This document shows positions 16,999-49,233 of a stretch of 64,000 nucleotides of DNA, piece after piece. Under the pieces are notes generated by a model that was not told the DNA's origin, did no database searches, and was given only the letters and a program-made list of their open reading frames with translations. Position 1 is the stretch's first letter. Every line of letters starts with the position of its first letter. The position numbers and the translations under genes were made by a program. Source of the DNA: Alphaproteobacteria bacterium (lineage in GTDB: Bacteria > Pseudomonadota > Alphaproteobacteria > SP197); contig OZ219920.1 in the NCBI GenBank assembly GCA_964291415.2, positions 672,001 through 736,000 of the forward strand, written 5' to 3'.

Positions 16999-17454
16999 CT
17001 ACTTCTTGCGGAAGGAATCGAGGGAGACGATGGTGCCGCCGCTTTCAGGCTGCTCCGGCTCTTCCTCCTCGGAAGGCTCTGTTTCCTCGAAAGGCACGCC
17101 CTCGTGACTCTTGAAGTTCAGCCCGAACTTGACGCTCGGGTCGACGAACGAGGTGACGGCGGTCCAGGGAACGCCGAGTTCGTGGGGCATGCGGTCAAAT
17201 GAAAGACCGATGGAAAAGCCTTCTTCGTCGACCTCGAGATTCCAGAACTGATTCTGGATGACGATCGTGATGTCTTCGGGATAGCGGGCCTTCAGGGCCT
17301 TGGCCATCCTGACGCCGGGGTGGTCGGTGCGGAAGGTGATGTAGAAGTGGTGGTCTCCGGGCAAGCCGTCACGCGCGGCGATTTCGAGGGCGCGGGCGAC
17401 GACGCTGCGCAGGGCGCCGTCAACCAGGAGTCCATAGTGGATGGAATCATTCAT
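16999..17454 (-). CDS. sspB: Alphaproteobacterial SspB, ClpXP adaptor for ssrA-tagged proteins
   Basis: GLPGDHHFYITFRT..PGV, YPEDITIVIQNQFWNL, FVDPSVKFGL, C-terminal IVSLDSFRKK; directly downstream of ssrA. Confidence 0.93.
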   Translation of the reverse strand: MNDSIHYGLLVDGALRSVVARALEIAARDGLPGDHHFYITFRTDHPGVRMAKALKARYPEDITIVIQNQFWNLEVDEEGFSIGLSFDRMPHELGVPWTAVTSFVDPSVKFGLNFKSHEGVPFEETEPSEEEEPEQPESGGTIVSLDSFRKK

Positions 17455-17485
17455 CGTTCGACCGGACCGTCAGGGACCGACATGA

Positions 17486-17740
17486 TGGAGGGCTTCTGTT
17501 GCCCGGTGCCCTCCAAACCGCGCTTGTCGCTCAAGCGGCGACAGCGAACGCCTCATTGTCGTTGGCGTTTGTGTGATTGACCCGATAACGGCGGTATCAT
17601 ACCGGGCGAAAATCGCACCTTTACCACGCACGTCGATCCTGGTTCGCCCCCATAGGTTTATGGTGGAGGCGGCGGGTACTGCCCCCGCGTCCGCAACGTC
17701 TATTCCGAACGACGTTTATCGCCATAGCCCGGCGCACCGG
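17486..17740 (-). ncRNA. ssrA: tmRNA, circularly permuted two-piece type; tag (A)ANDNEAFAVAA*
   Basis: Acceptor piece ends ...CCCGCCGCCTCCACCA at 17661; short spacer; coding piece starts GGGGGCG at 17651 (7-bp stem with G3.U70); tag frame 17566-17531; GGAGGGC/GCCCTCC 3' hairpin. Confidence 0.95.
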
Positions 17741-17749
17741 GCAACCCGA

Positions 17750-17779
17750 CATATAGGCGCAACGCCGCTGCCATGCAAC
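17750..17779 (-). promoter_or_regulatory. Putative sigma70 promoter of ssrA
   Basis: Minus strand TTGCAT-N16-CTATAT just upstream of the acceptor piece; decayed in the right repeat copy. Confidence 0.55.
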
Positions 17780-17829
17780 CCTTTTCCGGGCGACCCCGCA
17801 GCAAGCGGATGCGAAGAGCCTCAGCCGCC

Positions 17830-18060
17830 ATCGCCTGCCCGGCAGATCCGAAGAGCGGCTTGCCGTAGCCGTCGCACACGATTCTCCGAAGGCCCCGGAG
17901 TCTGGACCAGAGAGACCCCCGGTTTCCTGCGGTTCAGCGCCCGCAATTCCGGGAAGGTGCGTGCCGGCGGCACGCTGAAGACGGCACCGGAGTGGCAACC
18001 TCCGGCCCGGCGCAACGCCCTGCCGGCTACCTCCGCCGGGGCGTCATGATCCGCCGTGGA
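17830..18060 (-). pseudogene. Possible LysR substrate-binding-domain relic
   Basis: EVAGRALRRAGG..SGAVFSVPP..LRALNRRKPGVSLVQTPGPSENRVRRLRQ weakly resembles the start of a LysR effector domain. Confidence 0.25.
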
Positions 18061-18154
18061 ACATCGTCGCACGACCAGACCGGCCATGCCCATCCCGGGC
18101 AGGCTCCGACCACCGCACGACACGTCAGGGTCGTGCGGCGCACGCTCCCGGGAC

Positions 18155-19762
18155 CTAGGCCGGGCCGATGCGACGCGGACGAATGCGCGCGTTCGGAATG
18201 AAGTTCATGTTCACGTGATCGCGCACCAGCCAGCCGATCTGCACGTGGTTGATCGGCACGTAGGCGGCGTCCTCCCACATGAGCTGCATCATGCGCTGGT
18301 ACTTCTGGTCGCGCTCTTCCGCGACGACCGACGTGAACGCCTCCTCGTTCAGCCGTGTGTACTCGTCGCTGCGCCAGCGTTCCCAGTTCCAGTCGCCGAC
18401 GCCGGCGGTGGTGAACCATTGCGTCGCGCGGTTCGGATCGGGCGACGACGTCCACTGCTGGAAGATCAGCTGCAGGTCCTTCCAGTCATCGCCCTTCACC
18501 TCCAGCCCCAGGTTCCAGAAGGTCCCGCCTTCGTACTTGCGCACTTCGACGTTGACGCCGATCTGTGCAAGTTGCGCCTGGATGATCTGGCAGGCCGCCA
18601 CCTGCGCGTCGGAGTTGAGCACCGTGATGTGGGTGTCGAAGCCGTTCGGAAACCCGGCTTCGGCCAGCAACTGCCTGGCTTTCTCGAGGTCCGGTTTCGG
18701 TCGCTCCACGTCCCAGTAGCCCTCCAGGCCGGGCGCGATGATACCGGTGCCTACCGTGGCGGCGCCGAAGTAGGCGCCATCGTTGATTTCCTCGGCATCG
18801 ATGGCGGCCTGGATCGCACGGCGAACGCGAACGTCGCCGAACGGCTCGTGATCGACGTTCATGCCCATCCACGTGAAACCGGTCGTCTGCGCGGTCACCA
18901 GCTTGGAATTCTCCGGCACGTTTTCCCTGAACTCGGGAATCGAGCTTTCGGCGATGTCGGTCGCCTGGAGGTCACCCGCCAGGTAGGCAAGCTCGGCCGA
19001 CTTGTGGCTTGCGACATGCGTGAAACGCAACTCGTCCCAATACACCTCGTCGACGCCTTCCACGCCAGCCGCGTTGGGGTACGGCGTATGCTCGTCGTTG
19101 CGAACGAGTACCACGGTACCCGTGGTGGGGGAGAATTCGCCGATCTTGTAGGGCCCGGACCAGGCCGGCGGTTCGAAGGTGAACTTGCCACCGATCTCTT
19201 CCATCGCCTCCTTGCAGACGATGGCGGCCATGTCGCGCGGCAACGTGTTGGTGAACAGGTTCGCCTGGGGCGCCTTCATGATGATCACGCCATCCTGCGG
19301 GCCGTCGACGCCGACCTCGATGAGCTGCGTCCATTCCATGCGGTTGGTCGCCGTCTCGGTGAACGCGATACGCTCGATGGAATACTTGAAATCCTCGACG
19401 GAAACGTTGCCGTATCCGCCGCTCCACGTGATGCCGGGGCGCAGGCGAAAACGCAGTCGGGTGGGCGTTTCGTATTCGATCATCTCGGCAGCAGACAGGT
19501 GCCAGCCCCACGTGTCGCCGCTGTTGTACTCGACCAGGCGCTCGAACAGGGCGTGCATCACAACGGTATCGGTTTCAGAAATCGTGATCAGCGGGTCGAA
19601 TGAATGATACTCGTTGCGAACCCGTATGTTCAGGACCTTGCCGTCCGCAGCCCATGAGACATTGGGACCAGCGAACGCCAGGACGCCGGCGGCGCCGGCG
19701 TGCTGCAACACTTGTCTGCGGTTCAGTCTGATTGGTGGTAGCACGGTTGTCTCCTCCGTCAT
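18155..19762 (-). CDS. ABC transporter substrate-binding protein, family 5 (peptide/nickel type), Tat-exported
   Basis: LNRRQVLQ Tat motif, FRLRPGITWS, SGPYKIGEF, PFGDVRVRRAIQAAID, DLEKARQLLAEAGFPNGF. Confidence 0.9.
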   Translation of the reverse strand: MTEETTVLPPIRLNRRQVLQHAGAAGVLAFAGPNVSWAADGKVLNIRVRNEYHSFDPLITISETDTVVMHALFERLVEYNSGDTWGWHLSAAEMIEYETPTRLRFRLRPGITWSGGYGNVSVEDFKYSIERIAFTETATNRMEWTQLIEVGVDGPQDGVIIMKAPQANLFTNTLPRDMAAIVCKEAMEEIGGKFTFEPPAWSGPYKIGEFSPTTGTVVLVRNDEHTPYPNAAGVEGVDEVYWDELRFTHVASHKSAELAYLAGDLQATDIAESSIPEFRENVPENSKLVTAQTTGFTWMGMNVDHEPFGDVRVRRAIQAAIDAEEINDGAYFGAATVGTGIIAPGLEGYWDVERPKPDLEKARQLLAEAGFPNGFDTHITVLNSDAQVAACQIIQAQLAQIGVNVEVRKYEGGTFWNLGLEVKGDDWKDLQLIFQQWTSSPDPNRATQWFTTAGVGDWNWERWRSDEYTRLNEEAFTSVVAEERDQKYQRMMQLMWEDAAYVPINHVQIGWLVRDHVNMNFIPNARIRPRRIGPA

Positions 19763-19919
19763 TTCTTCGTTAAACGACACGCTGGATCTTCGATCCCGAC
19801 GAAACGGGAGCACGACAGACAAGCGCCGCGAAGATCAGCCAGCGATGAACTTCGGATCCTCCGTCCGATCATAGCATCGAAGGAACGGCGTGACCAACGG
19901 CGCGCCTTGTGCGCCCATG

Positions 19920-20903
19920 TCAGATGTCGGATTCGATCGGGAAATGACAGGTGAAGCTGTGACCCCGGGCCGTGCGCGTCGCGGGTGGCGCCACCTCGGA
20001 GCAGCGCGCCTGCGCCACCGGGCAACGCGGGTGGAATTCACAACCGCGCGGGCGCTCGATATTGCTTGACACCTCGCCCTTGAGCTGGAGCGGCGGGCGC
20101 ACGGCGTCGGGGTCGGGTTCCGGACTCGACGACAGGAGTGCCCGCGTGTAGGGATGGCGCGGCCGCTGGAACATTTCGCTCGCCGGGCCCTGCTCGACGA
20201 ACCGGCCCAGATACATGATCCCCATGCGATCGGCGAAATGCAGCACGACCTTCAGGTTGTGCGTGATGATCAGTATCGCGATGCCATGACGTGCCTGCAG
20301 TTCGAGCAGCAGGTTGAGCACTTCGCCCTGCACCGAGACATCCAGCCCGGCTGTGGGCTCATCGGCGATGAGCAGCCGCGGGGACAGCGCCAGCGCGCGC
20401 GCGACGCCGACCCGGCGAGCCTGTCCTCCGCTCAACTGGTGCGGATAGCGGCCGAGAAACTCCTCGCTCAGCCCGACCATCTGCAGCAGACGGCGCGCCT
20501 CGTCGTTGAGATCGACATCCTTGATGGCGTGGATCTTGAACGGCTCGGTGACCAGCCGCTTCACCGTCAGACGCGGGCTCAACGAGCCGGCCGGATCCTG
20601 AAACATCATGCTCAACTGGCGGCGGTACGGCTTGTAGGCGTTCTTCGAAAGTCCGCACAGTTCCTGGCCGTCGAAGCGGATCGAACCGGCGTGCGCGGTC
20701 TCGATGCCCACGATGGTCCTGGCGAGCGTGGACTTGCCCGAGCCCGATTCGCCGACCAGCGCGAAGGACTCGCCGGCGCTGATCGAGAACGACACGCCGC
20801 ATACTGCCTGCAGATAGGCTTCGCGCTGCTTCAGCCTGGCGCGCAAGGGCGACAGCACGCGGTAGCGTACCCTGAGGTCGTCCACTTCCAGGAGTCCGGG
20901 CAT
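19920..20903 (-). CDS. Oligopeptide-type ABC ATP-binding subunit (OppF/DppF-like)
   Basis: GESGSGKST, YPHQLSGGQ, ADEPT, HPYT..GCEFHPRCP. Confidence 0.92.
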   Translation of the reverse strand: MPGLLEVDDLRVRYRVLSPLRARLKQREAYLQAVCGVSFSISAGESFALVGESGSGKSTLARTIVGIETAHAGSIRFDGQELCGLSKNAYKPYRRQLSMMFQDPAGSLSPRLTVKRLVTEPFKIHAIKDVDLNDEARRLLQMVGLSEEFLGRYPHQLSGGQARRVGVARALALSPRLLIADEPTAGLDVSVQGEVLNLLLELQARHGIAILIITHNLKVVLHFADRMGIMYLGRFVEQGPASEMFQRPRHPYTRALLSSSPEPDPDAVRPPLQLKGEVSSNIERPRGCEFHPRCPVAQARCSEVAPPATRTARGHSFTCHFPIESDI

Positions 20904-20911
20904 GCAATCCC

Positions 20912-21886
20912 TCAGTACAGATGGCAGGCGACCGCGTGCCCGGGGGCGACGGTTCGCGTGTCCGGCGCTTCGGCCGCGCACTGTTGCAGGGCGCGATGGC
21001 AGCGCGCGCTGAAAATGCAGCCTGACGGAGGGTCCACGAGATCGGGAAGATCGCCAGGTATGGTCGGAAATGCGCGCTCGGTCGACCGCACGATTCGTGC
21101 AGGGTCACATTCCATCAGTTTCTCGGTGTAGGGATGGCGCACATCGTGGAAGAGATCCCGCACGCTTCCCTGCTCGACGACCTCGCCGGCGTACATCACG
21201 ACCACGTAGTCGCACAGGTCCGCGACCACCCCCAGATGATGGGACACGAACAGGATCGAGCACTGATAGCGGCGTTGCAGCTCCTTCAGCTCATGGATGA
21301 TCTGCACCTCGAGGGTTGCATCGAGCGCCGTGGTGGGCTCGTCGGCGATCAGCAGCTTGGGCTCTTCGATGATCGTCATCGCGATCGCGATACGCTGGCG
21401 CATGCCCCCTGAGAACTCGTGCGGGAAGGCATCCATGCGCGCGGCGGGATCGGGAATGCCCACCTGCGAGAGCGCCTGAATCGCGCGTTGTCTCTTGCTG
21501 TCGAGACCACCGCCGTCGCGGTGTTGCACGTCGATCAGCTGACGTCCGATTGAGACCACCGGATTCAGCGACGTCAACGGGTCCTGGAAGATCATCGAAA
21601 TGTCGGTGCCCCGCAGCGACTGCATGTCCGCCTCGGGCAGTTTCAGCAGATCACGCCCGCCGAATTGCACCTTGCCCTGCGTGATCGCCGCGTTTGGCGC
21701 GAGCAGTCGCATGACTGCGAGAATCAACGTGCTCTTGCCGCATCCCGATTCACCGACGACGCCAACTATTTTTCCTGTCGGCACGTCCAGGCTGACGTCA
21801 CGCAACGCCTTTATCACGCGTTTTCGGGCCTTGAACTCGACGCTCAGGTTGCGGACCTGCAGGATGTTCTCGGTCGGATCGGCCAT
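20912..21886 (-). CDS. Oligopeptide-type ABC ATP-binding subunit (OppD/DppD-like)
   Basis: [38 protein letters not shown]. Confidence 0.92.
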
Positions 21887-22752
21887 CACTCTTCCTTTCT
21901 GAGCCGCGGATCGAGAATGTCGCGCAGGGCCTCGCCGAGAAACGTGAATCCCAGGGTCGTCAGAATGATGGGCAGACCGCCGAACAGCAGCGGCCACGGC
22001 GAATTGCGCACGTAAGTGAATCCGTCATTGAGAATGTTGCCCCAGCTTGGCGCCGGCGGGCGCACACCGAAGCCGAGGAAACTCAATCCCGCTTCGGTCG
22101 TGATCACGACCGGCACTTCCATGGCCGCCAGGATCATGATCGGGCCGAGCACGTTCGGCAGCAGATGCACCGCCATCAGGCGACCAAGGGACGCGCCCAT
22201 CGCGATTTCAGCGTGGATGAACTCGCTGCTCTTCAAGGCCAGCGTCTGCGTGCGTACGGCGCGTCCGAACAGCGGAATCGAAAGAACCACCACCACGAAG
22301 ATGATGGTCTCCAGGCTTGGCCCCACCAGCGTCACGACGGCCAACGCGAACATCACCACGGGAAACGAACGCAACGTGTCGAACAGCAGCAGCAGCGAAT
22401 AATCGAGCCAGCGTGGCCCCATGCCGGCCAGCATGCCCAGCACCAGACCGATACCCGCCGACAGCGACACGGCAACCACCGCCGCCGTCATCGCGATGCG
22501 GCTGCCCGCTACCACGCGGGAGAAGACGTCCCGGCCCAGGAAATCGGTGCCGAACGGGTGCGCGAAAGACGGCGGCAGGAACTTGTCGCGGATCGACAGT
22601 GCCAGCGGATCCTCGGGCGCCAGGAAATCGCCGAACAACGCGGTAAACAGAATCGTAACGACGAGAATCAGTCCGGCGATACCCAGCACCTGGCGACTCA
22701 GCAGCTGGAGCCCACCGCCTACGCCTTGCCACCATGTATCGGAGCCGTTCAC
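21886..22752 (-). CDS. ABC permease (OppC/DppC-like)
   Basis: [42 protein letters not shown]. Confidence 0.92.
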
Positions 22753-22761
22753 GTCCGTGCC

Positions 22762-23706
22762 TCACAAGCGCGAGCGAATGCGTGGATCGAGCAGGGCATT
22801 GAGTATGTCGGACAGCGTTGTTGCGATGACGAACAAAGTCGTCGTGACCAGCACCGTGCCCATGATCAGCGGAAAGTTCCGCTGCTGCACGGCAACGAAA
22901 ATGAGTTTGCCCAGACCCGGTCGTGCAAAGATGATTTCTGCGAACACCACTCCGGACAGCATCGCGCCGATACCGATGCCGATGATGGTGACCGCCGGAA
23001 GGATCGCGATGCGCAACACGTACCGGTACAGGATCACGTTGTGCGGCAGGCCATGCGCACGGGCGTGCCGCACGTGGTTCTCTGCCAGCACCTCGAGCAT
23101 CGATGCACGCACCAGTCGTGCCAGATAGCCGACCCAGCCGAGACCAACGGCGAACGCGGGCAACACGAGGTGATGCAACTGACCGAACCAGCCCTTTTCC
23201 TGGCCGCCACCGATCACGGGGAACCAGCCGAGTGTGACCGCAAACAACAGCAACGCGTACAATCCGACCACGAAAGGCGGCATCGCGATAAAGGCGACCG
23301 AAGAAACGCCCGCTGCCTTGTCCATCCAGCTGTCCGGGTGCGTCGCCGAGTAGACTCCGAGCGGCACGCCAAGCAGCAGGGCCCACGACATGCCCGCCGC
23401 CACCAGAATCAGCGTGTAGGGCAGGACGCCGATGATCGTCTCGGCAACCGGTCGTTCGGCGAACACGTCGACGCCCAGATCCCCGGACAGCACCCGCCCG
23501 AAGAACGACACGATTTGCATCGGCAACGGCTTGTCCAGGCCCATGCGTTGTTCCATCGCCGCGATCAGCTCTGGTGTCGCTCGCGGACCGAGCATGACGG
23601 TCGCCGGATCGCCCGGCACCGCGTGGATCATCAGATACATGAGAGTGACGGCCAGCATGATGATCACGATCCCCAGGGCGGTTCGTTTCACCATGTACAG
23701 AATCAT
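22762..23706 (-). CDS. ABC permease (OppB/DppB-like)
   Basis: VPGDPA, GLDKPLPMQ, HLVLPAFAVG, ARAHGL, FARPGLG, LLDPRIR. Confidence 0.92.
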   Translation of the reverse strand: MILYMVKRTALGIVIIMLAVTLMYLMIHAVPGDPATVMLGPRATPELIAAMEQRMGLDKPLPMQIVSFFGRVLSGDLGVDVFAERPVAETIIGVLPYTLILVAAGMSWALLLGVPLGVYSATHPDSWMDKAAGVSSVAFIAMPPFVVGLYALLLFAVTLGWFPVIGGGQEKGWFGQLHHLVLPAFAVGLGWVGYLARLVRASMLEVLAENHVRHARAHGLPHNVILYRYVLRIAILPAVTIIGIGIGAMLSGVVFAEIIFARPGLGKLIFVAVQQRNFPLIMGTVLVTTTLFVIATTLSDILNALLDPRIRSRL

Positions 23707-23869
23707 GCGTGCCTGCCGTCCGCGGTGATCCCGGTTTCGGTTTGCAGGCCGTCGCGCGGCGCCCGGACTCGCTCGGGGCCGGTGCCGCAACGCCGGTCAA
23801 CGCCCGGCGTGGGCCGGCTCGCGACCCGGGATCGGGCGTTCTTCAGAATTGGCGTTGGTGAGGCGGCTT

Positions 23870-24368
23870 CGCTGAAGAACCGGTGCAGGTTGGCGAACAT
23901 TCCGACCCCCGCACCGGCAAGACTCTGCCCGTCCCGGCACTCGGCGGGAACGATTGCCGGCCGAAAGTCGTTGTCGAACATGTTGCTGCCCTGTGGCGTC
24001 TGCTCCATCCCTGGAGGCGCCATGCTCGACATTGAGACAGCAAACCAGGCCTCCTCGGTCGCAGCCCGATCGCGAGCCCGTCGTGCGAGCGCAACGGCCC
24101 GACGGTTGATGGCCGGTCCCTGAGCGCCCGACCCGACGGCCTCGAGCGCATGGTGCACAGGCGCACAGGCAATCGCGGTGATCACGCCAGCCCCGGCGGC
24201 ACTTTACTCGTCGTGTGCCTGGCGAAGGATCGTGCGGATGCGAGTCGTGGCGCTGGCACTCGACGCCGTTGCGTCCTTGGCGACGCCGTGCGATTCGATC
24301 TGTGCGCCGACCCGACCGTCGAGAACGAGAAACGCACCCCATTCGATACGCGCGAGAATGCTAGGCAT
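23870..24368 (-). pseudogene. Homocysteine S-methyltransferase-family pseudogene (internal stop, truncated)
   Basis: My translation from ATG 24368: MPSILARIEWGAFLVLDGRVGAQIESHGV...ILRQAHDE*SAAGAGVITAIA...INRRAVALARRARDRAA...SMSSM; TAA at 24204-24206 where the family has H.dY..AGA. Confidence 0.75.
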
Positions 24369-25227
24369 GGCATGGCGGAATGGTTGTTCACAGTATCGGC
24401 GAGTGATCTACATTAGTACGCTGACTCGCAAACACGCAACCGGATGCCAATCGCCGCACGTGTGACGAACGCGAGGAATGTCACCTCCGTTCCCGGCGTC
24501 GGGTGGCAACTTGGCGGCAGTGCTCCGTCCGATCGAAGAGGCGCCCGATCAGGTTTCGATCACGGATCCGGTGCCGGATCTCGTCTTCGCCAGTCGGCCG
24601 GCGGACTGAAGGGGACGCGCCCGGACGCCGCGCAGCCGGTCGTTGCCGGCACTCATCACGTCCTCGCCGTGTCTCGACGCGATTGCGCAAGAGCGGTCTG
24701 GCACGTCGGCGCGGAGCCCGCCTTCGGACCAGCCCTTCGGTCGTCGAGTTGGCGAGAGCGCCTGCGAAGGGATGGTGCGGCTTGTCCTGATCGGCGCCGG
24801 CGTTGGTGCGGACGCGGCGCGAGGGTGCGACACCGGAACGGTCGGCAGCCAAGGTTTCGAGCGGATTGCGCTCGACGCAGGCTGTGTCCGCTCACCAATC
24901 GAGTTTCCAAGCATGCATCGCAGCCCGATAGGGGCGCCTGCGTCTGACCCGCCTCGAGGTGAGCGACTGGTGCCGCAAAGGCAGCACGGCTCGTCGAATC
25001 GGGTCCGCGCCGCGCTTCCTTCCGGCACGTGTTCGCGCTGTTCAGCCACGCGTAGGACACCTGCGCATTGCAACCCTTCGGCAATCCCGGCCCCCGCTTC
25101 CCGGGCTGCCAGTGTTCGTGCGCTGTCGATTGTCGCGGCGACAGGCATGTCGAGATCACGTTGCAGGCTGTCAGCGAATTCGCGATTGTATGACGCATGT
25201 GCCAGCCCGCAGATCGGAAGCACAGGC

Positions 25228-27074: not shown

Positions 27075-27092
27075 CATCCGGAGGAGGTCGTC

Positions 27093-29570: not shown

Positions 29571-29596
29571 CTGCGTGTCGAGTGAACTCGAGGGAG

Positions 29597-30427: not shown

Positions 30428-30446
30428 TGTGGGAGGGCAATGCCTG

Positions 30447-31229: not shown

Positions 31230-31243
31230 CGGGTGATCGATCC

Positions 31244-34117: not shown

Positions 34118-34130
34118 GGATGCCGCCCGA

Positions 34131-35117: not shown

Positions 35118-35121
35118 GCCG

Positions 35122-38667: not shown

Positions 38668-38719
38668 GTCCAATCCCTTGGTCCAGGTCGCTCGCAGACC
38701 TTGCGGCCGGGTCATGGCG

Positions 38720-39064
38720 GGCAAGCGTCCGCACGCGCCAAGAATGCGCCCCTCGCCGCAGAACCGTCACAGGCCGTTCGGGGCGCACCGCAACCTGGCG
38801 GCGCCAGACCCGCTTCCTGCGACGCCGGACACGGACATGAAGGTCGAGCCGCGGGCTTCCACTCGGACGACCGGAGTGCCGTCGTGGCCGCCGGTGCCGC
38901 AGGTCAAGGGACATGTCGGCGAGGTCGACGACGTCCCCGAAGGCGCCGGCGATGCCAAGGAGCGGGCCGCGCAGGCTGCCCGTGCGGCCTTCGGCGACGC
39001 ACGCTTCTGCCTTTGCCCGCGGGTGATCGCCGGCATGTGTGAGGGCGCGGTCGGTCATGGCCAC
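38720..39064 (-). pseudogene. Degenerate amidase N-terminal relic
   Basis: RAKAEACVAEGRTGSLRGPLLGIAGAFGDVVDLADM plus shifted frame DGTPVVRVEARGS, echoing GpLhGvP..ikD..d..g / D..vV.rl.aaGa. Confidence 0.45.
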
Positions 39065-39065
39065 G

Positions 39066-40478: not shown

Positions 40479-40934
40479 CCCGTTCGGTTCCCGGTCTGGC
40501 GCATGTGCGAAGTCCGGTTGTGGACCTCCGCCTCGATGGCGAACTCGGCACCCGCCGGCGCGAACTCAACGCTGCCTTGACGTTCCCCGCCGCGGACCGG
40601 CCTCGCCATGTTGGGCCCCTTGCGCGAGACGACATGGGACCGAATGGGGGTCATGCCATGGCCCGGCTCGCTCGTGGCATTGGAGCCGTGGGTGGTTCGA
40701 TGGCGCGGAACGGGAAAACGAACCCGCGGTCGGCGAATCGCTGGGCGAGGGGCGCCAGGGTCATGTCGTTGGGGGGCCTCCTTCGGAAGGTTGCGGCAAG
40801 CGCAACAGGACGCACCCGCCACCGGAGACTATGCCTGCGCCAGTCAACGATGCAATTGCGCCCGCCTGGCCCGGCAGGCTTGACCGTGTCGCCGACAGCC
40901 GTGGTACCTATCACGACCGGCTTGGGGAAGGACA

Positions 40935-43286
40935 ATGGCGATCGTACGCTTCGGCGCGCCGTTGCGCAGAATCGAGGACGGCCGCTTCCTGGCCGGCCGC
41001 GGCCGCTATGTCGCGGACATCGTCGCGGCGCGCCAGCTCCACATGATCGTGCTGCGCTCGCCCCACGCCCATGCCAGGATAGCCTCGATCGACACGGCAG
41101 CAGCGCGCGCGGCACCCGGGGTCGTCGACGTGGTTTGCCGCGACGAACTTCGGGTCGACGGGCTGCGCGGCATGCCGACGATCGGCACTGTGGTCAGCAC
41201 GGACGGCACGCCGCAGGCGCGGCCACCCTATCCCGTCCTCGCCGGCGACAGGGTGCGCTTCGTTGGCCAGCCGGTCGCCGCGGTGGCGGCTGAGACGGTC
41301 GAGCAGGCGGCCGATGCGAGCGAACTGATCGAGGTCGATTTCGAGCCCCTGCCTGCCGCCCCCGGGGCGGAGGCGGCGCTGAGATCCGGAGGGCCGCAGC
41401 TGCATGACGAGGCGCCCGGCAACCTCTGCTTCGACTGGGAGACCGGCGACCGGGATGCGGTCGCGCGAGCGTTCGCGGACGCGGCGGCCACGGTCGAGAT
41501 CGAGATCGTCAACAACCGGATGGCGCCTGCCCCCATAGAACCGCGTGGCGCGCTGGGCGAGTACGATGCCTCGAGCGGGCGGCTGACGCTGACGGCCTGC
41601 CATCAGGGTGTTCACTTCCTGCTCGACGATCTCGCCCATGTCCTGGGCATCGCCCCGGCGCGGCTGCGCATCCTGACGCCCGACATAGGCGGCGGTTTCG
41701 GCATGAAGTACACGCCCTACCCCGAGCAGGCGCTGGTGCTCTGGCAAGCGCGGCGCACAGGCCGGCCGGTGCGCTGGATTTCCAGCCGCAGCGAGGCCTT
41801 CATCAGCGACGCCCAGGCGCGCGATCACCGGACCCGCATCGCCCTGGCGCTTGATGGCGAGGGCCGCTTCCTGGCCCTGCGCAGCGACACGGTAGCCGAC
41901 CTCGGAGCCTATCTGACGCAGCATGCCACACGGATTCCGACCAGCGGCGCCACGATCACCCTGCCGGGCCCATACCTGCTGCCCGAGGTGCACGCGCGGG
42001 TGCGCGGAGCCTTCTCCAACAGCGTGCCGGTCGACGCCATGCGTGGTGCCGGTCAGCCCGAGGCGACCTATGCGCGCGAGCGCGTGATCGAGGCCGCGGC
42101 GCGCCGGCTCGGCGTGCCAGGCGATGAACTGCGCCGGCGAAACCTGGTACCACGCGAGGCGATGCCCTATCACACCGCGACGGGCGTGCCGCTTGCCGAC
42201 ACCGACCTCGCAGCGAACCATGCCCGCGCGCTCGAGGCCTCGGACGTCACCGGCTTTCCCGCGCGGCGCACCGCAGCACGCGCCGAGGGCCTGCTTCTGG
42301 GGCGTGCCCTGGTGCACTACCTGGAGGCGACAGGTCGCGGCGAAGTCGGCGACACGACCCGGCTGCGAGTGGAGCCGTCCGGACACGTCACGCTGGTGGT
42401 CGGCAGTATCTCCAACGGTCAGGGCCACGAAACGGCCTATGCCCAGATGCTGTCGGCCGAACTCGGCGTGGCGCCCGGGGATGTGCGCGTGGTGAGCGGC
42501 GACAGCGACGTTGTTGCACCGGGCAGCGGCGGATCGAGCAGTTCGCACTTCCTGCAGGTGGCGGGACCGGGACTGCAGGTGGTCGCCGAGCGGGTGCGTG
42601 ACAAGCTGTGCCGTGTCGCGTCGCACCTGCTGGAGGCCTCCGAAGTCGACATCGATTTCAAGGTCGACGAGCAGCGATTGTGCGTCGCAGGGACGGACCG
42701 TTCGGTCACGTTCCGGCAGGCGGTGCGCGCGGCCCACGATGCCGCGAACCTGCCCGCTGACATCGAGCCCGGGCTCGACGAGACCGCTTACTACCGCCAG
42801 AAGGGTGCTGCCTATCCCACGGGCTGCCATGTCTGCGAGATTGCGGTCGACCCCGATACCGGCATGGCGACAATCCGACGCTACGTCGTGGTCGACGATT
42901 TCGGCAATGTGCTCAATCCGCCGCTGGTCGAGGGCCAGGTCCACGGCGGGGTCGCGCAGGGCATCGGCCAGGCCCTGCTGGAATGCTACGCCTACGATCC
43001 CGAGAGCGGCCAGCCAATGACCGGCAGCCTGCTCGACTACACCTTGCCGCGGGCTGACGACCTCCCCGCCTATGAAGTGACGCTGGAGGGCGTGCCCAAC
43101 AGCAACAACGCCATGGGCGTGAAGGGCTGCGGCGAGGCGGGGACCATCGCCGCCCCGCCCGCCGTGATCAATGCCCTGCTCGACGCGCTTGCCGAACGTG
43201 GCGTGACGACCATCGACATGGCAGCGACACCGGCGTGTATCTGGCGCGCACTGCAAGACGCCGCCGTGAGGGAGGAGAGGACATGA
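40935..43286 (+). CDS. Xanthine dehydrogenase-family molybdopterin-binding large subunit (CoxL form II-like)
   Basis: RIEDGRFLAGRGRY, RSPHAHA, IGGGFG, AMRGAGQPEA, GQGHET, GQVHGGVAQGIGQAL, GVKGCGEAG. Confidence 0.93.
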   Translation: MAIVRFGAPLRRIEDGRFLAGRGRYVADIVAARQLHMIVLRSPHAHARIASIDTAAARAAPGVVDVVCRDELRVDGLRGMPTIGTVVSTDGTPQARPPYPVLAGDRVRFVGQPVAAVAAETVEQAADASELIEVDFEPLPAAPGAEAALRSGGPQLHDEAPGNLCFDWETGDRDAVARAFADAAATVEIEIVNNRMAPAPIEPRGALGEYDASSGRLTLTACHQGVHFLLDDLAHVLGIAPARLRILTPDIGGGFGMKYTPYPEQALVLWQARRTGRPVRWISSRSEAFISDAQARDHRTRIALALDGEGRFLALRSDTVADLGAYLTQHATRIPTSGATITLPGPYLLPEVHARVRGAFSNSVPVDAMRGAGQPEATYARERVIEAAARRLGVPGDELRRRNLVPREAMPYHTATGVPLADTDLAANHARALEASDVTGFPARRTAARAEGLLLGRALVHYLEATGRGEVGDTTRLRVEPSGHVTLVVGSISNGQGHETAYAQMLSAELGVAPGDVRVVSGDSDVVAPGSGGSSSSHFLQVAGPGLQVVAERVRDKLCRVASHLLEASEVDIDFKVDEQRLCVAGTDRSVTFRQAVRAAHDAANLPADIEPGLDETAYYRQKGAAYPTGCHVCEIAVDPDTGMATIRRYVVVDDFGNVLNPPLVEGQVHGGVAQGIGQALLECYAYDPESGQPMTGSLLDYTLPRADDLPAYEVTLEGVPNSNNAMGVKGCGEAGTIAAPPAVINALLDALAERGVTTIDMAATPACIWRALQDAAVREERT

Positions 43287-43654
43287 CAATCGAACGCGTC
43301 TCGCCCGGCGCCGAGTACGGCGCGTTGTTCAGCGCGGCGACGGCGGCCGACCGTTTCGTCTTCGTCGGCGGCACCACAGCCTGGGACGGCCCCAGCGGCG
43401 GCGACGTGGAGAGCCAGACCCGGTTCATCCTCGGCAAGATTGACGGCTACCTCGAGGCCTGTGGCACATCGAAATCGTCGGTGCTGTTCGTCAACGTCTA
43501 TCTCGCCGACATCGAAACCTGGGAGGACATGAACCGGGCCTGGCTCGCCTGGATCGACCCCGAGGCCGTGCCGGCCCGGGTCAGCATCGAGGCCCGCCTG
43601 CTCGAGGGCCTCAAGGTCGAGATCACGTGCGTGGCGCTTCGTCCCCAACCATGA
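43283..43654 (+). CDS. RidA/YjgF-family protein
   Basis: FVFVGG, QTRFILGKID, VYLADI..MNRAW, PAR, KVEI. Confidence 0.85.
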   Translation: MTIERVSPGAEYGALFSAATAADRFVFVGGTTAWDGPSGGDVESQTRFILGKIDGYLEACGTSKSSVLFVNVYLADIETWEDMNRAWLAWIDPEAVPARVSIEARLLEGLKVEITCVALRPQP

Positions 43655-44291
43655 CCGATGCGCCGTCGAGGTGATCGGTCCAGAAGGCCAGGGCGAGCAG
43701 CGGCTCGTTCTCCGTTCGCGTGGAGTGCGGCAGACCCGAGTGGTGAAAGATGAAGCTGCCGGGCGGGCGGGTCACCCAGTCCTCATTGCCGCGCCGCCAA
43801 CGGGCAGTGCCGGCCACGACCCAGTAGACCTCGGGGGCCGGGTGCGCGTGAGGCGGATAGAGCACGCCCGGCCCCTGGATCGTGAAGAAGGCCGAGAGAC
43901 GACCCGAGACGACCAGGCCGCGTGGCCCGACAAGCTCCGCGTAGGCATACTCGGCGCGGAACGCGTCATAGCGTAGATCGCCGGCGAGTTCGGGGTATGC
44001 AGCGCCCCAGGCAAGCGCGTCGCGCGCCGCGAGCAGCGCCTCGGTCACGGCGGCGGGATCGTCCGCAGAGGGGTTCGGCAGGTCGTCGAGGTGCGCGCAT
44101 GGCGGCTGCTCGCTTGGCACGGACAGGCGTCTTTCTGGCGAGTCCAAGACAACGCTCGCAGCGGCCTCAAGGTAGTCGCTGGCTTCATCCCCGCGTGTTG
44201 CCCCCGCCCGCCATGCAGCGACCACGGCCGCGATCAGGCGCTCGACGCGGGCCGCTGCCGGGAGTGAAGTCACCGCGCCGTCGGCGGTCAT
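43623..44291 (-). CDS. DMSP lyase-family (DddQ/DddL-like) cupin
   Basis: YAYAELVGPRG, PGVLYPPHAHPAPEVYWVVAG, HHSGLPHSTRTENEPLLALAFW. Confidence 0.75.
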   Translation of the reverse strand: MTADGAVTSLPAAARVERLIAAVVAAWRAGATRGDEASDYLEAAASVVLDSPERRLSVPSEQPPCAHLDDLPNPSADDPAAVTEALLAARDALAWGAAYPELAGDLRYDAFRAEYAYAELVGPRGLVVSGRLSAFFTIQGPGVLYPPHAHPAPEVYWVVAGTARWRRGNEDWVTRPPGSFIFHHSGLPHSTRTENEPLLALAFWTDHLDGASVMVGDEAPRT

Positions 44292-44367
44292 GATCACCTC
44301 GCCTTTCAAGGGAGGGCCATGGTGGCAGATCGGCGTGACGGCGGGCAAGGGAGAAGAGATCGTGTCG

Positions 44368-46398
44368 ATGAGACCCGTGTCGTCACTGCCCGTGAAGATA
44401 CGCCAGATCGAACATTGCTGGATCCCGATGTCGGACGGCGTGCGGCTGGCCGCGCGAATCTGGCTCCCCGAAGACGCCGAGGCGAGACCGGTACCGGCGA
44501 TCCTGGAGTACATCCCCTACCGCAAGCGCGACGCGATCAGTGAGCGCGACGAGACCATCCATCCCTACTTCGCCGGCCACGGCTATGCCGCGGTGCGCAT
44601 CGACATCCGCGGCTCGGGCGACTCCGAGGGGCTGCTGCTGGGCGAGTACCTGAAGCAGGACCACGACGACGCGCTCGAGGCGCTCGACTGGATTGCCGCG
44701 CAGCCCTGGTGCGACGGCAAGATCGGGATGATGGGACTGAGCTGGGGTGGCTTCGAAGCGCTGCAGGTTGCCGCGCGACGGCCGCCGGCGCTGAAGGCCG
44801 TGATCTCGGTGGGCTCGGTCGACGATCGCTACGCCGACGACATGCACTTCAAGGGCGGCTGCCTGCTGAACGACAACATGTACTGGCACTCGCTCTTCTT
44901 CTCGCTGCTCTCGCGGCCGCCCGACCCGATGATCGTGGGTCAGCAGCGCTGGCGCGAGATGTGGTTCGATCGCCTGGAGAATCTGATCAACCCCATCCAG
45001 GAATGGCTGCCACACCAGCGGCGTGACGCCTTCTGGCGCCACGGCTCGGTGCGCGAGGACTACGGGGCGATCCAGTGCCCGATCTACCTGGTGGGCGGAT
45101 GGGCCGACAGCTACATCAACTCGGTGCCGAGCCTGCTGTCGGGTCTGAAGGTGCCGCGCAAGGGGCTGATCGGACCCTGGGGCCACCAGTACCCGCAGGA
45201 CATGGCGCCACCTGGTCCCTGGTTCGGCTTTCTGCAGGAGGCCCTGCGCTGGTGGGGCCACTGGCTCAAGGGCATCGACACCGGGATCATGGATGAGCCC
45301 ATGTACCGCGCCTGGATGGCGGAGGCGATGCCGCCCGACCCCGGCCTGCCCGAGACCCGGGGCCGCTGGATCGCCGAGCCCGTCTGGCCGCGTTCCGACG
45401 GCCATGCCCGGACCTGGCACCTCGCACCGGGGGGCCTCGCCGACAGGCCCGAGGAAGACGCGGCGCTGACGCTGAGTTCGCCCCTTGATATCGGCACGTC
45501 GAGCGGCTGCCTCTGCCCCTACGGTCTGGGCTCTATCGGCCACGAACTGCAGACGGACCAGCGCGTTGACGACGGCAATTCGCTGTGCTTCGACACGCCA
45601 CCGCTTCGCGAACGCGTCGAATTCTTCGGCGCACCGGTGGTGGAGCTTGAGCTGTCGGTCGACCGGCCGGTAGCGCAAATCTCGGTCAGGCTCAACGACG
45701 TCGCTCCCGACGGCACCTCGACCCGGGTCACCTTCGGCCTGCTCAACCTGACCCATCGGGACGGGCACACCGATCCGCAGCCGATGGAGCCCGGCCGGCG
45801 TACCCGCATCCGGTTGGCGCTCGACAACATGGCCTATGCCTTCCTGCCCGGCCACCGCATGCGGCTTGCCGTTGCGACGGGCTACTGGCCGGTGGCGTGG
45901 CCAACGCCCGAGAAGGCCATGCTCACGCTCCACACGGGCGAGAGCACCCTCGAGGTGCCGGTGCGGAAGCCACGCCCCGAGGACGCCGGCTTGCGTCCGT
46001 TCGAGGAGCCGGAGTCGTCGGAGCCGGAAGCGCGCACCATGCTGGTCGACGCGAGCCGGGCGCGCAGTGTGCGCCACGACGTGGTGACCGGCATCACCAC
46101 GCTTGAGGCGCACAAGCACCGCGGCTGGTTCCGCATCGAGAGCCACGGCCTTGAGATGAGCAGCGAAGGCACCGAGCGCTACAGCGTGCATCGAAGCGAC
46201 CCCTCGAGCGCAACCGGCGAGACCGAGCAGCTCGTACTGATCGGCCGTGGCGACTGGCGTCTGAGGTTGGAGACCAGGACGCGGATGACGTCGGACAAGG
46301 AGGCCTTCCACATCCATTCCGAGATCGACGCGTTCGAGGACGGGGAGAAGTCCTTCACCCGTTCCTGGGACGCCTCGGTGCCGCGCGACCTGGTGTGA
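44368..46398 (+). CDS. CocE/NonD-family hydrolase (peptidase S15)
   Basis: WIPMSDGVRLAARIWLP, EYIPYRK, DIRGSGDSEG, GLSWGG, GGWAD, GPWGH. Confidence 0.92.
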   Translation: MRPVSSLPVKIRQIEHCWIPMSDGVRLAARIWLPEDAEARPVPAILEYIPYRKRDAISERDETIHPYFAGHGYAAVRIDIRGSGDSEGLLLGEYLKQDHDDALEALDWIAAQPWCDGKIGMMGLSWGGFEALQVAARRPPALKAVISVGSVDDRYADDMHFKGGCLLNDNMYWHSLFFSLLSRPPDPMIVGQQRWREMWFDRLENLINPIQEWLPHQRRDAFWRHGSVREDYGAIQCPIYLVGGWADSYINSVPSLLSGLKVPRKGLIGPWGHQYPQDMAPPGPWFGFLQEALRWWGHWLKGIDTGIMDEPMYRAWMAEAMPPDPGLPETRGRWIAEPVWPRSDGHARTWHLAPGGLADRPEEDAALTLSSPLDIGTSSGCLCPYGLGSIGHELQTDQRVDDGNSLCFDTPPLRERVEFFGAPVVELELSVDRPVAQISVRLNDVAPDGTSTRVTFGLLNLTHRDGHTDPQPMEPGRRTRIRLALDNMAYAFLPGHRMRLAVATGYWPVAWPTPEKAMLTLHTGESTLEVPVRKPRPEDAGLRPFEEPESSEPEARTMLVDASRARSVRHDVVTGITTLEAHKHRGWFRIESHGLEMSSEGTERYSVHRSDPSSATGETEQLVLIGRGDWRLRLETRTRMTSDKEAFHIHSEIDAFEDGEKSFTRSWDASVPRDLV

Positions 46399-47039
46399 TG
46401 TTCTACGAGCCGGCACAGGGCCACGGCCTGGAACTCGACCCCTTCAAGAGCCTGGTCGTACCCCGTCCGATCGGCTGGATCACCACGCTCGACACCGAGG
46501 GGCGGGTGAACCTTGCGCCGTACAGTTACTTCAACGCCGTGGCCGACGACCCGCCCGCCGTGATGTTCTCCTCCTCGGCAGGCGAAGGACCCGACCGCCG
46601 GAAGGACTCCTGGCGCAACGCCGAGGCGACGGGCGAGTTTGTCTTCAACCTGGCGACCTGGGAGCTGCGTGAGGAGGTCAACCAGACCTCCGACGCCGTG
46701 CCCAGCGACGTCGACGAGGCGGCGCTGGCGGGCCTCGACATGATTCCGTCGCGGCTTGTCAAGCCCCCCCGGGTTGCACGCTCTCCCGTACACCTGGAGT
46801 GCCGCTGGCTGAAGACGGTGATCGTGCCGCAGAATGGCGACTATGCGCCCGGGGACAACGGGCTGGTGCTGGGCGAGGTGGTCGGTGTGCACATCGACGA
46901 GACGATCATGGCGAACGGGCGCGTCGATCTGTCGCGGATTCGCCCCATCGCACGGCTCGGTTATGCGCAGTATGCCGTGGTCGACACACTGTTCCGCATG
47001 GTCCCGCCCTGGGTGACGAGTGATCCGGACAAGGAGTGA
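46395..47039 (+). CDS. Flavin reductase-like FMN-binding protein
   Basis: PRPIGWITT, NLAPYSYFN, KDSWRNAEATGEFVFN, SPVHLEC, IARLG. Confidence 0.88.
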   Translation: MMFYEPAQGHGLELDPFKSLVVPRPIGWITTLDTEGRVNLAPYSYFNAVADDPPAVMFSSSAGEGPDRRKDSWRNAEATGEFVFNLATWELREEVNQTSDAVPSDVDEAALAGLDMIPSRLVKPPRVARSPVHLECRWLKTVIVPQNGDYAPGDNGLVLGEVVGVHIDETIMANGRVDLSRIRPIARLGYAQYAVVDTLFRMVPPWVTSDPDKE

Positions 47040-47049
47040 AGGCCCGGCC

Positions 47050-47877
47050 ATGGCCGACCCGGAGCAGATCGCCGGGCGCTTCGAGCGGGACGGTTTCGTG
47101 TTCCCGGTTCCGGTGATTTCGCGCGCGGCGGCCGACGGGGCGCGCCGCCGCTTCCTGGAGACGCGGCGGGAGGCCGAGCGCGATCCCCGCATCGCCGACT
47201 ACCTCTCCTACAAGGCCAACGTGGCCTACCGGTGGGTCGACGAGTTCGTGCACAGGTCCGCTCTGCTCGACGCCGTGGCGGCGGTGTTGGGCCCGGACTT
47301 GCTGCTGTGGAGCTGCTCCTTCGTCTGCAAGGATCCGCGCTCGTCGGGCCGCTACTCCTGGCACCAGGACGCCACCTACTGGGGCATGACGCCTCCGGTG
47401 GGACTGACGGTCTGGCTGGCGCTGGGCGACGTGGGCCCGCACAACGGCGGCATGAGCTTCATCCCCGGCGCCCACACGTGCGGCCAGCTCGCCCATACCA
47501 ACACCTTCGCTGCCGACATCATGCTGCCGCGCGGCCAGCAGATCCGTGAGCTGCCCCACCCCGAGCGTGCGACGGCGCTTCAGCTCGCTTCGGGCGAGGC
47601 CTCGTTCCACGGCGTCTTCACGCCCCATGCCTCGGGACCCAATGGCAGCGACGACTATCGCGTGGGCTGTGCCATGGTCTTCATACCGCCGCACGTGAAG
47701 AACCAGACGCTGCGCGAGTCCGCGATGCTGGTGCGCGGCACCGACCGCCACGGGAACTTCGAGCTCGAGCCGCGGCCCAGGGCCGACCTCGACGACGACG
47801 CGGTCGCCGCGCACGGCACGGCAATGAGACGTATGGCGACCTGGCAAAACGAACAGAAGCTCACGAAGCGGGCGTGA
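47050..47877 (+). CDS. Phytanoyl-CoA dioxygenase (PhyH)-family Fe(II)/2OG enzyme
   Basis: FERDGF, WHQDATYW, TVWLAL, PHASGPN..DYR. Confidence 0.9.
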   Translation: MADPEQIAGRFERDGFVFPVPVISRAAADGARRRFLETRREAERDPRIADYLSYKANVAYRWVDEFVHRSALLDAVAAVLGPDLLLWSCSFVCKDPRSSGRYSWHQDATYWGMTPPVGLTVWLALGDVGPHNGGMSFIPGAHTCGQLAHTNTFAADIMLPRGQQIRELPHPERATALQLASGEASFHGVFTPHASGPNGSDDYRVGCAMVFIPPHVKNQTLRESAMLVRGTDRHGNFELEPRPRADLDDDAVAAHGTAMRRMATWQNEQKLTKRA

Positions 47878-47888
47878 GGGAGGACGGC

Positions 47889-48731
47889 ATGGGCGGCAAG
47901 TATCTGAAGGGACGGAGCGCCTGGGTTACGGGTGGTGCCACCGGCATGGGGCGCGCCTGCGCCCTTGCGCTCGCGGAAGCCGGTGCCGATGTCGCCATCG
48001 GCTCGCTGACGTCCAAGGTGAGCAATCCTCGCGTCAGGGGCGAGGCCGCCCTGGTGCTGGATGACGGCGAGCTTGAGGCGACGGGCGGCGAGATCGAATC
48101 CCGGAACGTGAAGGCACTCGCCCTGCCGCTCAACGTCTGTTCGGACGAGTCCTGCGCCATGTTCTTCGAGGCCACGGTGAAGGCCTTCGGCAAGGTCGAC
48201 ATCCTGGTCAACGCGGCAGGCGGTTCGGCCCACCACCCGATGATCGACCATCCCGACGAGCTCTGGCTGCGTACCATCGACGTCAACCTCAACGGCCCCT
48301 ACCGAACCACCAGGCTCTGCTTTGCGGGCATGGTTGAGCGGGGCTGGGGACGTATCGTGAACCTGGCGACGACCGGCGCGCGGGTCGGACACGCGGGACA
48401 TGCGGCCATGTGCGCGTCGAAGACCGGCCTGCTCGGTCTGACCCGCTGCGTCGCGCTCGAGGGCGCGCGCCACGGCGTGACCTGCAACGCGATCAACCCG
48501 GGAAGCGTGAAGACACCGCATGTCGTGCGTTCGGCGCTGCCAAACAAGATCGCGATGCTGGGCATTGACCGCTCTCTCGAGGACTACCTCGACGACACCG
48601 TGAGGACGGTGCCGCAGAACCGCTGGATCGAAGCCGAGGAGATCGGCGCCTTCGCAGCCTTCCTGTGCAGCGAAGGCGCTCGCGGCATCACGGGCGAGGA
48701 TATCCAGATTTCTGGCGGCGCGCACTGGTAG
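47889..48731 (+). CDS. SDR with beta2 insertion and MCASK in place of YxxxK
   Basis: TGGATGMG, VNAAG, MCASKTG, NAINPG; paralog of 35122-35976. Confidence 0.85.
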   Translation: MGGKYLKGRSAWVTGGATGMGRACALALAEAGADVAIGSLTSKVSNPRVRGEAALVLDDGELEATGGEIESRNVKALALPLNVCSDESCAMFFEATVKAFGKVDILVNAAGGSAHHPMIDHPDELWLRTIDVNLNGPYRTTRLCFAGMVERGWGRIVNLATTGARVGHAGHAAMCASKTGLLGLTRCVALEGARHGVTCNAINPGSVKTPHVVRSALPNKIAMLGIDRSLEDYLDDTVRTVPQNRWIEAEEIGAFAAFLCSEGARGITGEDIQISGGAHW

Positions 48732-48818
48732 GCAGCGACGGTCGAACACCGCTTCGTCGGCCGCACCGACGACGAGAGGCCCGGCTGACCCGGGTGCCTG
48801 CTCGACCACATGTTCGAC

Positions 48819-49233
48819 GGCGGCGACGCTGCGCAGGGCGCCGTCAGCCAGCAGTCCATGGCTGATGGAATCAATCATCGCTCGACCGGACCGTCAGGGA
48901 TCGACATGAGGAAGGGCTTTGTTCCCCGGTGCCCTCCAAACCGCGCTTGTCGCTCACGCGGCGACAGCGAACGCCTCATTGTCGTTGGCGTTCGTGCGAA
49001 TGACCCGGTGACAGCGGTATCTTACCGAGCGATAGCCGGACCTTTGCGACGCACGTCGATCCAGGTCCCCCATCGATCCATGGTGGAGGCGGCGGGCAAT
49101 GTCCCCGCCTCCGCAAAGTCCGTTCCGGACGACGCTCTTCGCCGTAGCCCGGCCACCGGGCAACCCGTCACAACGGCGTAGAGCGGCCTCCACGCCACGC
49201 CTTTTCGGGCAACCCTACAGCAGCCGGATGCGA
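48819..49233. repeat. Right, decayed copy of the sspB'-ssrA-promoter repeat
   Basis: Encodes MIDSISHGLLADGALRSVAA (intact sspB: MNDSIHYGLLVDGALRSVVA) and then diverges; homology runs through the tmRNA and promoter region. Confidence 0.92.
48908..49160 (-). pseudogene. ssrA: Second, degenerate permuted tmRNA copy
   Basis: Keeps CCGCCTCCACCA (49081) and tag ANDNEAFAVAA* (48989-48954); has a 3-nt deletion in the 5' acceptor strand (GGGGGACC vs GGGGGCGAACC), altered T-loop, weakened 3' hairpin and decayed promoter. Confidence 0.85.

Follow-up and report, generated by a model that had tools for sequence, protein, structure and literature searches.

We analyzed a stretch of 64,000 nucleotides from a genome of the alphaproteobacterial lineage SP197 (assembly GCA_964291415.2, contig OZ219920.1, positions 672,001 to 736,000), hereafter the window, in which two diverged copies of the tmRNA gene ssrA bracket a block of about 31 kb. 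The copies lie in direct repeats, which blastn aligned in a single piece (17395-17833 against 48819-49252) with 362 of 439 columns identical (82%), 5 gap columns, and an E value of 4e-115, a similarity far above chance. Each repeat is composed of about 50 nt of upstream region, the whole permuted alphaproteobacterial tmRNA gene, a spacer, and codons 1 to 20 of sspB. Both tmRNA copies are on the minus strand; the left repeat (17395..17833) is thus the downstream one and holds the intact copy, and the right repeat (48819..49252) is the upstream one and is decayed. A preliminary description made from the sequence alone had reported such repeats around a block of this size, with the ends at 17395 and 48819 placed exactly and those at 17814 and 49233 about 19 nt short. 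A repeat search over positions 11000-56000 retrieved no further repeat or att-like pair that brackets the block.

The left copy (17484..17782, minus strand) is an intact, permuted (two-piece) ssrA with the tag ANDNEAFAVAA. It scored 242 bits over the full Rfam model RF01849 (positions 1-355; gathering score of 50), comparable to the 242 to 248 bits of the single ssrA genes of five relatives (L001 to L005, introduced below), and the sole tmRNA call of ARAGORN in the window corresponds to it (17440-17755, minus strand, same tag). As had been described, it runs into a full sspB gene (16999..17454, minus strand), located immediately downstream and encoding the tmRNA-tag adaptor (PF04386, 144.6 bits versus a cutoff of 27, residues 11-134, E value of 3e-42); SspB had no NCBIfam match at an E value of 1e-5 or below. 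The conserved downstream flank is fumC (15508..16911, minus strand; Pfam Lyase_1 and FumaraseC_C), which is syntenic in L001 to L004. The alignment also revealed a TTGCAT-N16-CTATAT motif that is kept upstream of the left ssrA and in L001 to L003 and is looser in L004 and L005. We take CTATAT to be the alphaproteobacterial -10 consensus, and the motif may represent the ssrA promoter. The duplicated stretch had been said to comprise the gene, its promoter, and the sspB start; the alignment agrees as to the whole gene, the upstream region, and the sspB start, and the label of promoter goes beyond the scan for E. coli-type sigma-70 promoters, which called none in the left or the right copy.

The right copy (48909..49163, minus strand) is an ssrA pseudogene, hereafter the relic. 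It scored 107 bits with RF01849, above the gathering threshold, over model positions 38-355 only, and was not called by ARAGORN. Three nucleotides are deleted from the 5' strand of its acceptor stem, as seen in both the Rfam and the sequence alignments, and several further pairs of the model were flagged as non-standard. The upstream motif is mutated to TGGCGT...CGTTGT, which suggests that the promoter was lost; this suggestion rests on the alignment, since neither copy yielded a promoter in the sigma-70 scan. In the tag frame, which is intact, there is one synonymous change. Over alignment columns 211-638, we counted 48 changes unique to the relic at which the left copy, L002, and at least one of L001 and L003 agree. 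At sites where the left copy and L001 to L003 all agree, the relic changes are GC biased (22 AT-to-GC versus 10 GC-to-AT) relative to an ancestral sequence of 61% GC, as expected from relaxed constraint in a genome of 65% GC.

At the far end of the block, the right repeat retains a fragment of sspB (48819..48878, minus strand). It tracks sspB from the ATG at 48878 for exactly 60 nt, i.e., codons 1 to 20, and then diverges (alignment column 638), and this agrees with the earlier report of a decayed copy that breaks off at about codon 20. The spacer between this fragment and the stop codon of the last gene of the block (48731), which encodes a short-chain dehydrogenase (SDR), is 87 nt long. A 407-amino-acid open reading frame (ORF) that runs on from the ATG of the fragment (47655-48878) was rejected as spurious, as it has no family match and is antisense to the well-supported SDR gene. 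For a 123-amino-acid ORF antisense to the relic (48810-49181), the search of the protein collection yielded 18 word candidates, none of which passed.

The block between the repeats (17834..48818), hereafter the cargo, was inspected with Pfam, PHROGs, and NCBIfam profiles and for its GC content. Pfam matches were obtained for 26 of its 32 ORFs, all to transport, catabolic, or regulatory families. They include an opp-type ABC transporter with five components, a C45 autoproteolytic acyltransferase/hydrolase, an epimerase, a ceramidase-like protein, alpha/beta hydrolases, five SDRs, an isochorismatase-like hydrolase, a GbdR-like AraC regulator, a metallophosphoesterase, a large DMFase-beta-like protein, an amidase, the large subunit of a molybdopterin (MoCo) dehydrogenase, RidA, a DMSP-lyase-like cupin, a CocE/NonD hydrolase, a flavin reductase, and a PhyH dioxygenase. 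In line with the preliminary description, which had noted the lack of an integrase, no recombinase, integrase, or transposase was found among the 32 ORFs with Pfam or among the 23 ORFs scanned with PHROGs, and profile scans of the cargo ORFs detected no phage, replication, or transfer genes. The six ORFs without a Pfam match overlap better-supported genes or are situated in one divergent intergenic region of 1.1 kb; that one of them might be a hidden integrase was rejected, as a rescan with PHROGs was empty.

The cargo has a GC content of 0.62-0.66 on its left side and 0.67-0.70 in its right half, compared with 0.63-0.68 for most of the flanks; it is not compositionally foreign. A plasmid origin was considered and rejected after both cargo ends and the repeats had been compared by blastn with 72,556 plasmid records. 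These records contained only matches of 65-69% identity to single transporter or hydrolase genes, nothing matching the ssrA repeat, and nothing collinear. Two cargo proteins, a solute-binding protein (SBP) and an SDR, had graded series of homologues in the protein collection, at 94, 83, 80, and 73% and at 93, 80, 78, and 77% identity, respectively. Judged by these series, the cargo looks like a clade-resident gene set rather than an exotic import. Two SDR genes, at 35122-35976 (minus strand) and 47874-48731 (plus strand), are inverted paralogues: stretches of 44 to 109 nt are complementary at 72-82%, and the final 99 nt at 82%. Both are in the right part of the cargo, where the GC content is higher (0.68-0.70), and the second is at the far end. 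The pair could serve as a substrate for inversion or could mean that the cargo is composite.

A low-GC islet (49360..53900; GC content of 0.57-0.60) lies between the relic and thyX. It encodes a protein with Schlafen/AlbA_2 and HATPase_c_4 domains (Pfam), and PADLOC identified in it a complete candidate system PDC-M45 (A, 7.9e-88; B, 5.5e-76; C, 1e-69; a DuOB and two DUF488 proteins) and PDC-S01 (AAA_14/DUF4143; 4.6e-100). The thyX gene itself (53931..54989, plus strand) matches Pfam Thy1 and NCBIfam TIGR02170 (212.7 bits versus a cutoff of 87.9), and the comparison below identifies it as the ancestral upstream neighbor of ssrA. A mechanically called ORF of 721 amino acids (52662-54827, minus strand) overlaps thyX on the opposite strand; its family match begins at residue 338, and the real PDC-S01 gene probably starts near 53900.

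To place this locus among its relatives, we used a single SspB-based genome scan, from which 80 loci of 506 relatives were kept, each seen with 10-kb flanks only. The closest five (L001 to L005) are metagenome-assembled Alphaproteobacteria with SspB identities of 89, 88, 83, 75, and 55%, respectively, and their content was compared with 43 window proteins by tblastn. Each of the five has one ssrA, directly upstream of sspB, and this adjacency was observed in 46 of the 78 loci whose upstream sequence was long enough. Ten loci, spread over several orders and including L003 and L005, have thyX 164 to 1,087 nt upstream of ssrA; thyX followed by ssrA-sspB is thus the old arrangement. The site is empty in L003, where miaA, degP, hflC, hflK, and thyX are followed directly by ssrA, sspB, fumC, a permease gene, an SBP gene, and asmA, with full synteny of the outer flanks. 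It is also empty in L005, where thyX adjoins ssrA; the thyX-ssrA distances are 164 nt in L003 and 237 nt in L005. The preliminary description had proposed that an empty ssrA-thyX site be sought in related genomes, and it is present in these two.

The other relatives differ at this position. The 3.5-kb contig of L001 has an 88% homologue of the islet gene 52146-52610 upstream of ssrA. This homologue, PDC-M45C, stands alone next to ssrA there, and no islet genes are present in L003 or L005. In L004, the content upstream of ssrA (1401-8044) is unrelated and includes a STAND-type NTPase of 1,235 amino acids that has TPR repeats, along with an incomplete Transposase_29 ORF. The L002 genome contains the cargo: upstream of its ssrA-sspB-fumC, we found genes for the SBP, OppF, OppD, OppC, OppB, the C45 enzyme, the epimerase, and the ceramidase-like protein at 74-97% identity, and the 321-nt spacer between cargo and ssrA is collinear with that of the window, at 82-83% identity over the aligning parts. 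This locus (JAPPGE010000004.1) was seen over 56105-76539, which corresponds to the near, left-junction end of the cargo. Five different contents are thus found upstream of ssrA among the window and its five closest relatives. Since the content differs among relatives and the site is empty in L003 and L005, the cargo is an insertion with respect to the ancestral state, and the interval upstream of ssrA is a variable hotspot. The divergence of sspB from L003 at four-fold degenerate sites is 0.17 (65 sites), versus 0.30-0.34 for fumC, the permease gene, and thyX, a weak hint of past recombination at the locus. When the tmRNA regions of the 53 loci with an ARAGORN call were each compared with themselves by blast, no other ssrA duplication emerged; a copy 31 kb away would lie beyond the 10-kb flanks. 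The only second match to an ssrA flank among the 53 loci was in L066 (499-694), where 79 nt immediately downstream of the tmRNA gene recur about 120 nt later with 94% identity.

The insertion is not recent. The genomes of the window and L002 are about 92% identical at the nucleotide level and belong to different species-level genomes. Their four-fold divergence was 0.16, 0.22, 0.20, 0.23, and 0.19 in five flank genes and 0.16, 0.06, 0.26, 0.18, 0.20, 0.18, and 0.22 in seven cargo genes; by comparison, the divergence of the window was about 0.25 from L001 and about 0.30-0.34 from L003. Because cargo and flanks diverged together, the cargo was already at this site in the common ancestor of the window and L002, and the equal divergence argues against recent movement. 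The term island, used for the block in the preliminary description, is therefore apt in the sense of an insertion into the ancestral thyX and ssrA-sspB order, as documented by L003 and L005, and inapt in the sense of a recent or active element, as L002 has the same cargo and left junction.

The relic appears to be of local origin. Over the repeat, the left copy is 96.7% identical to L002, and the relic is 84.0% identical to the left copy, 83.8% to L002, 80.7% to L001, and 77.9% to L003. Nine sites unite the relic, the left copy, and L002 against L001 and L003, and three sites show the opposite. The maximum-likelihood (ML) tree placed the relic within the clade of the left copy and L002, on a long branch of 0.32. 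The approximately unbiased (AU) test did not separate the three resolutions inside this clade (P = 0.22-0.81) and rejected a relic with or outside L003 (P = 0.025); a xenologous origin of either copy from a distant donor was thereby rejected for positions at or beyond L003. Furthermore, the repeat reaches 38 nt further upstream (to 17833 and 49252) than the region homologous to L001 and L003, which begins at about 17795 and 49214, and because of this extension it appears to be a copy of sequence of its own lineage. Taken together, these data suggest that the two copies are paralogues or alleles from very close relatives. The earlier proposal that incoming DNA supplied a foreign replacement for the promoter, ssrA, and the sspB start is not borne out, as the decayed copy groups with the left copy and L002. 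With both copies in one narrow lineage, any donor would have been a very close relative, or the copies are paralogues that arose in situ. The description of the right copy as the older one is not supported either.

We consider it probable that the locus is the product of integrase-independent recombination at a variable thyX-ssrA hotspot, which stranded one ssrA copy and left an old, vertically inherited scar. According to this reading, the thyX-ssrA interval would be a variable hotspot of this alphaproteobacterial clade. After the L003 lineage had branched off, and probably after that of L001 too, and before the window and L002 separated, a 31-kb block of clade-typical catabolic and transport genes would have been joined just upstream of ssrA by the general recombination or repair machinery and by no site-specific integrase. 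The event would have left two copies of a 439-bp stretch that contains the upstream region, ssrA, and codons 1 to 20 of sspB. The copy still linked to the full sspB and fumC would have gone on as the working gene. The second copy, left behind between the far cargo end and the older islet, would have been redundant and cut off from sspB. It would then have decayed with a GC bias, losing its upstream motif and the integrity of its acceptor stem, and the whole structure would have been inherited vertically. The preliminary description had named integrase-independent capture, either of the Campbell type or linked to a duplication, as a further possibility; this is still the best class of explanation.

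The inferred part of this reading is the joining mechanism. In the order of transcription, the layout is the ancestral upstream context, one copy, the junction of sspB codon 20 with the far cargo end, the cargo, the junction of the near cargo end with the sequence about 50 nt upstream of ssrA, the other copy, and the rest of sspB. Such a layout is as produced by a join that is not site specific. It may tentatively be traced to an exchange between cargo-bearing and cargo-free haplotypes with one homologous end in ssrA, sspB, or fumC and one illegitimate end at sspB codon 20, of which the mirror image is possible too. Campbell-type homologous integration of a circle that carried the 439-bp stretch is a doubtful candidate; a tandem duplication followed by deletions is unlikely, and the capture of a fragment at a staggered break with fill-in is more unlikely still, the rest of the probability falling to other routes. 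The circle and the exchange with one homologous end both need cargo that was already beside ssrA in some genome, whereas capture at a staggered break does not. A mosaic of donor and recipient sequence is not readable in the repeats, given the narrow lineage that both copies share and the decay of one of them.

Several points weigh against the favored reading. The repeats have not diverged evenly: between the tag frame and the sspB start, the best 100 columns contain 6 mismatches (permutation P = 0.005), and the repeat further upstream of the tag frame has 20-30% mismatches. The well-kept tract (17460-17580 and 48885-49005) takes in the tag frame together with the 3' end of ssrA and the spacer that precedes sspB. 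It is not predicted by plain neutral decay and needs gene conversion or some constraint, and conversion by the intact copy would be the simplest explanation; the left copy and L002 are identical across the tract. The support inside the clade of the left copy, L002, and the relic is weak (62-74), and a relic outside L001 or sister to L001 was only marginally disfavored (AU test, P = 0.07). The divergence of the relic (ML branch of 0.32; 16-18% in raw terms) exceeds half of the four-fold divergence between the window and L002 (about 0.1), so that either the duplication is clearly older than the split of the two or the relic evolved faster than four-fold sites. If L002, seen up to a point short of the far cargo end, lacked the relic there, the timing and the single-event picture would change. 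The loss of an integrase module is also conceivable.

Such a loss is the essence of a degenerate classical island, in which a tyrosine-integrase element entered ssrA and the integrase and mobility genes were later deleted. This account draws on the fact that tmRNA genes are favored integration sites and that integration leaves a regenerated gene and a displaced piece, as described in PMC4383910; the empty site in relatives and the transposase fragment upstream of ssrA in L004, which indicates that mobile DNA visits this spot, are also in its favor. We nevertheless judge it very unlikely. None of the 32 ORFs is an integrase or a fragment of one, and no unassigned gap could accommodate one; the duplication comprises the whole gene with its upstream region and 60 nt of sspB instead of a terminal fragment; the cargo is native-like in GC content and in its graded series of homologues. 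The polarity is also the opposite of the usual one: the intact copy is the one remote from the ancestral upstream flank, and the downstream copy, which is complete, has retained an upstream region of its own. That DNA from another organism, consisting of the left copy (promoter, ssrA, and sspB start) and the cargo, displaced the resident right copy is possible without being probable. The geometry fits, with a relic that keeps the ancestral context (islet and thyX) and an intact copy joined to the cargo; L002 shows that a cargo-ssrA haplotype exists, and one-ended homologous joins combined with illegitimate joins yield exactly such a layout, according to PMC5361080. However, both copies belong to the same narrow lineage, with no foreign donor visible, and the divergence of 3.3% between the left copy and L002 over the repeat fits vertical descent as well as import. 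Two other histories are equally compatible with the data, namely, the mirror event, in which the islet, ssrA, and truncated sspB of a cargo-free haplotype were imported in front of the resident cargo, and a duplication in situ.

An artefact of assembly or a strain chimera joined at shared ssrA sequence would be in keeping with the metagenomic origin of all close relatives, which the window may share, and with repeats being classic points of mis-joining. A chimera joined at a shared repeat would retain one copy and not two, though, and an assembler would not confuse copies of 82% identity. The coherent decay pattern of the relic, with its clean break at sspB codon 20, and the presence of the left junction in the independent assembly of L002 also speak against an artefact, which we regard as extremely improbable. 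A bolder proposal is that ssrA with the sspB fragment is a working long homology arm and the 31-kb block an integrase-free transferable unit that passes into and out of related genomes by RecA-dependent single crossover at the tmRNA gene, which is conserved universally. We give it very little credence; if it were true, ssrA would serve as an attachment site without a site-specific recombinase, and gene conversion or selection would maintain the dead copy in its unusually well-kept tag-coding and 3' portion as a recombination substrate.

The locus shares some features with several known systems. Like the tRNA and tmRNA gene islands of the Islander/TIGER type (PMC4383910), it has a large block next to a tmRNA gene, direct repeats of the target gene, and an absence of the block from the same site in relatives. 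It differs from them in having no integrase, a 439-bp whole-gene repeat instead of a displaced terminal fragment, a working copy distal to the ancestral upstream flank, and a compositionally native cargo inherited across a species split. Of the hallmarks of a classical tmRNA-targeting island, the empty site is present; integrase and fragment-type repeat are not, and the equal divergence of cargo and flanks from L002 speaks against recent movement. Many hotspots without integrases turn over through recombination at flanking core genes, as reported in PMC5635113, and the interval studied here, between the core genes thyX and ssrA-sspB, resembles them in that its content differs in nearly every relative, the window version being without integrase or transposase and the L004 version having a transposase fragment. 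Unlike a clean double homologous exchange, which leaves no duplication, the event in the window left a 439-bp duplicate and one unclean end. For effector-immunity arrays of the type VI secretion system and for Rhs tips, PMC5361080 proposes homology-facilitated illegitimate recombination, in which joins with one homologous and one illegitimate end displace the old copy and leave orphans. The conserved anchor, the new DNA beside it, and an old copy that is an orphan with a piece of the anchor are found here as well; the anchor, however, is a permuted ssrA with the sspB start instead of a toxin core, there is a single displacement instead of an array, and the orphan is without evident function.

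Campbell-type integration, in which a circle enters by a single homologous crossover, results in an insert flanked by direct repeats of the shared segment. The insert between direct repeats in the window resembles this product; no circular form, replication genes, or transfer genes were seen here, in contrast, and a circle would first need the cargo beside ssrA. Among duplicate calls in tmRNA surveys, there are pseudogenes and island-made ssrA fragments (PMC4131195), and the window likewise has a second, non-functional ssrA-like sequence beside one good gene. The surveyed pseudogenes lack one gene end or are fragments, whereas the relic is full length by Rfam (model positions 38-355) with internal damage. 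In the limited literature searched, we found no description of a full-length duplicate of a permuted ssrA that brackets an integrase-free block. The locus is a natural example of a large non-mobile block fixed beside an essential RNA gene without an integrase, with a full-length tmRNA pseudogene as the scar. Software that uses tmRNA fragments as end marks of islands would call the block an island despite the lack of mobility genes, and the scoring of the relic above the gathering threshold of Rfam is of relevance for tmRNA annotation. The case bears on how hotspots flanked by core genes change their content; it opens no new mechanism or long-standing question.

In the outer flank, a stretch of 1.3 kb with a lower GC content (0.59) is located between asmA and the SBP gene (11450-12740). 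It contains a 211-amino-acid ORF (12083-12718) that matches no Pfam or PHROG family. The distance between asmA and the SBP gene in L002 is 73 nt.

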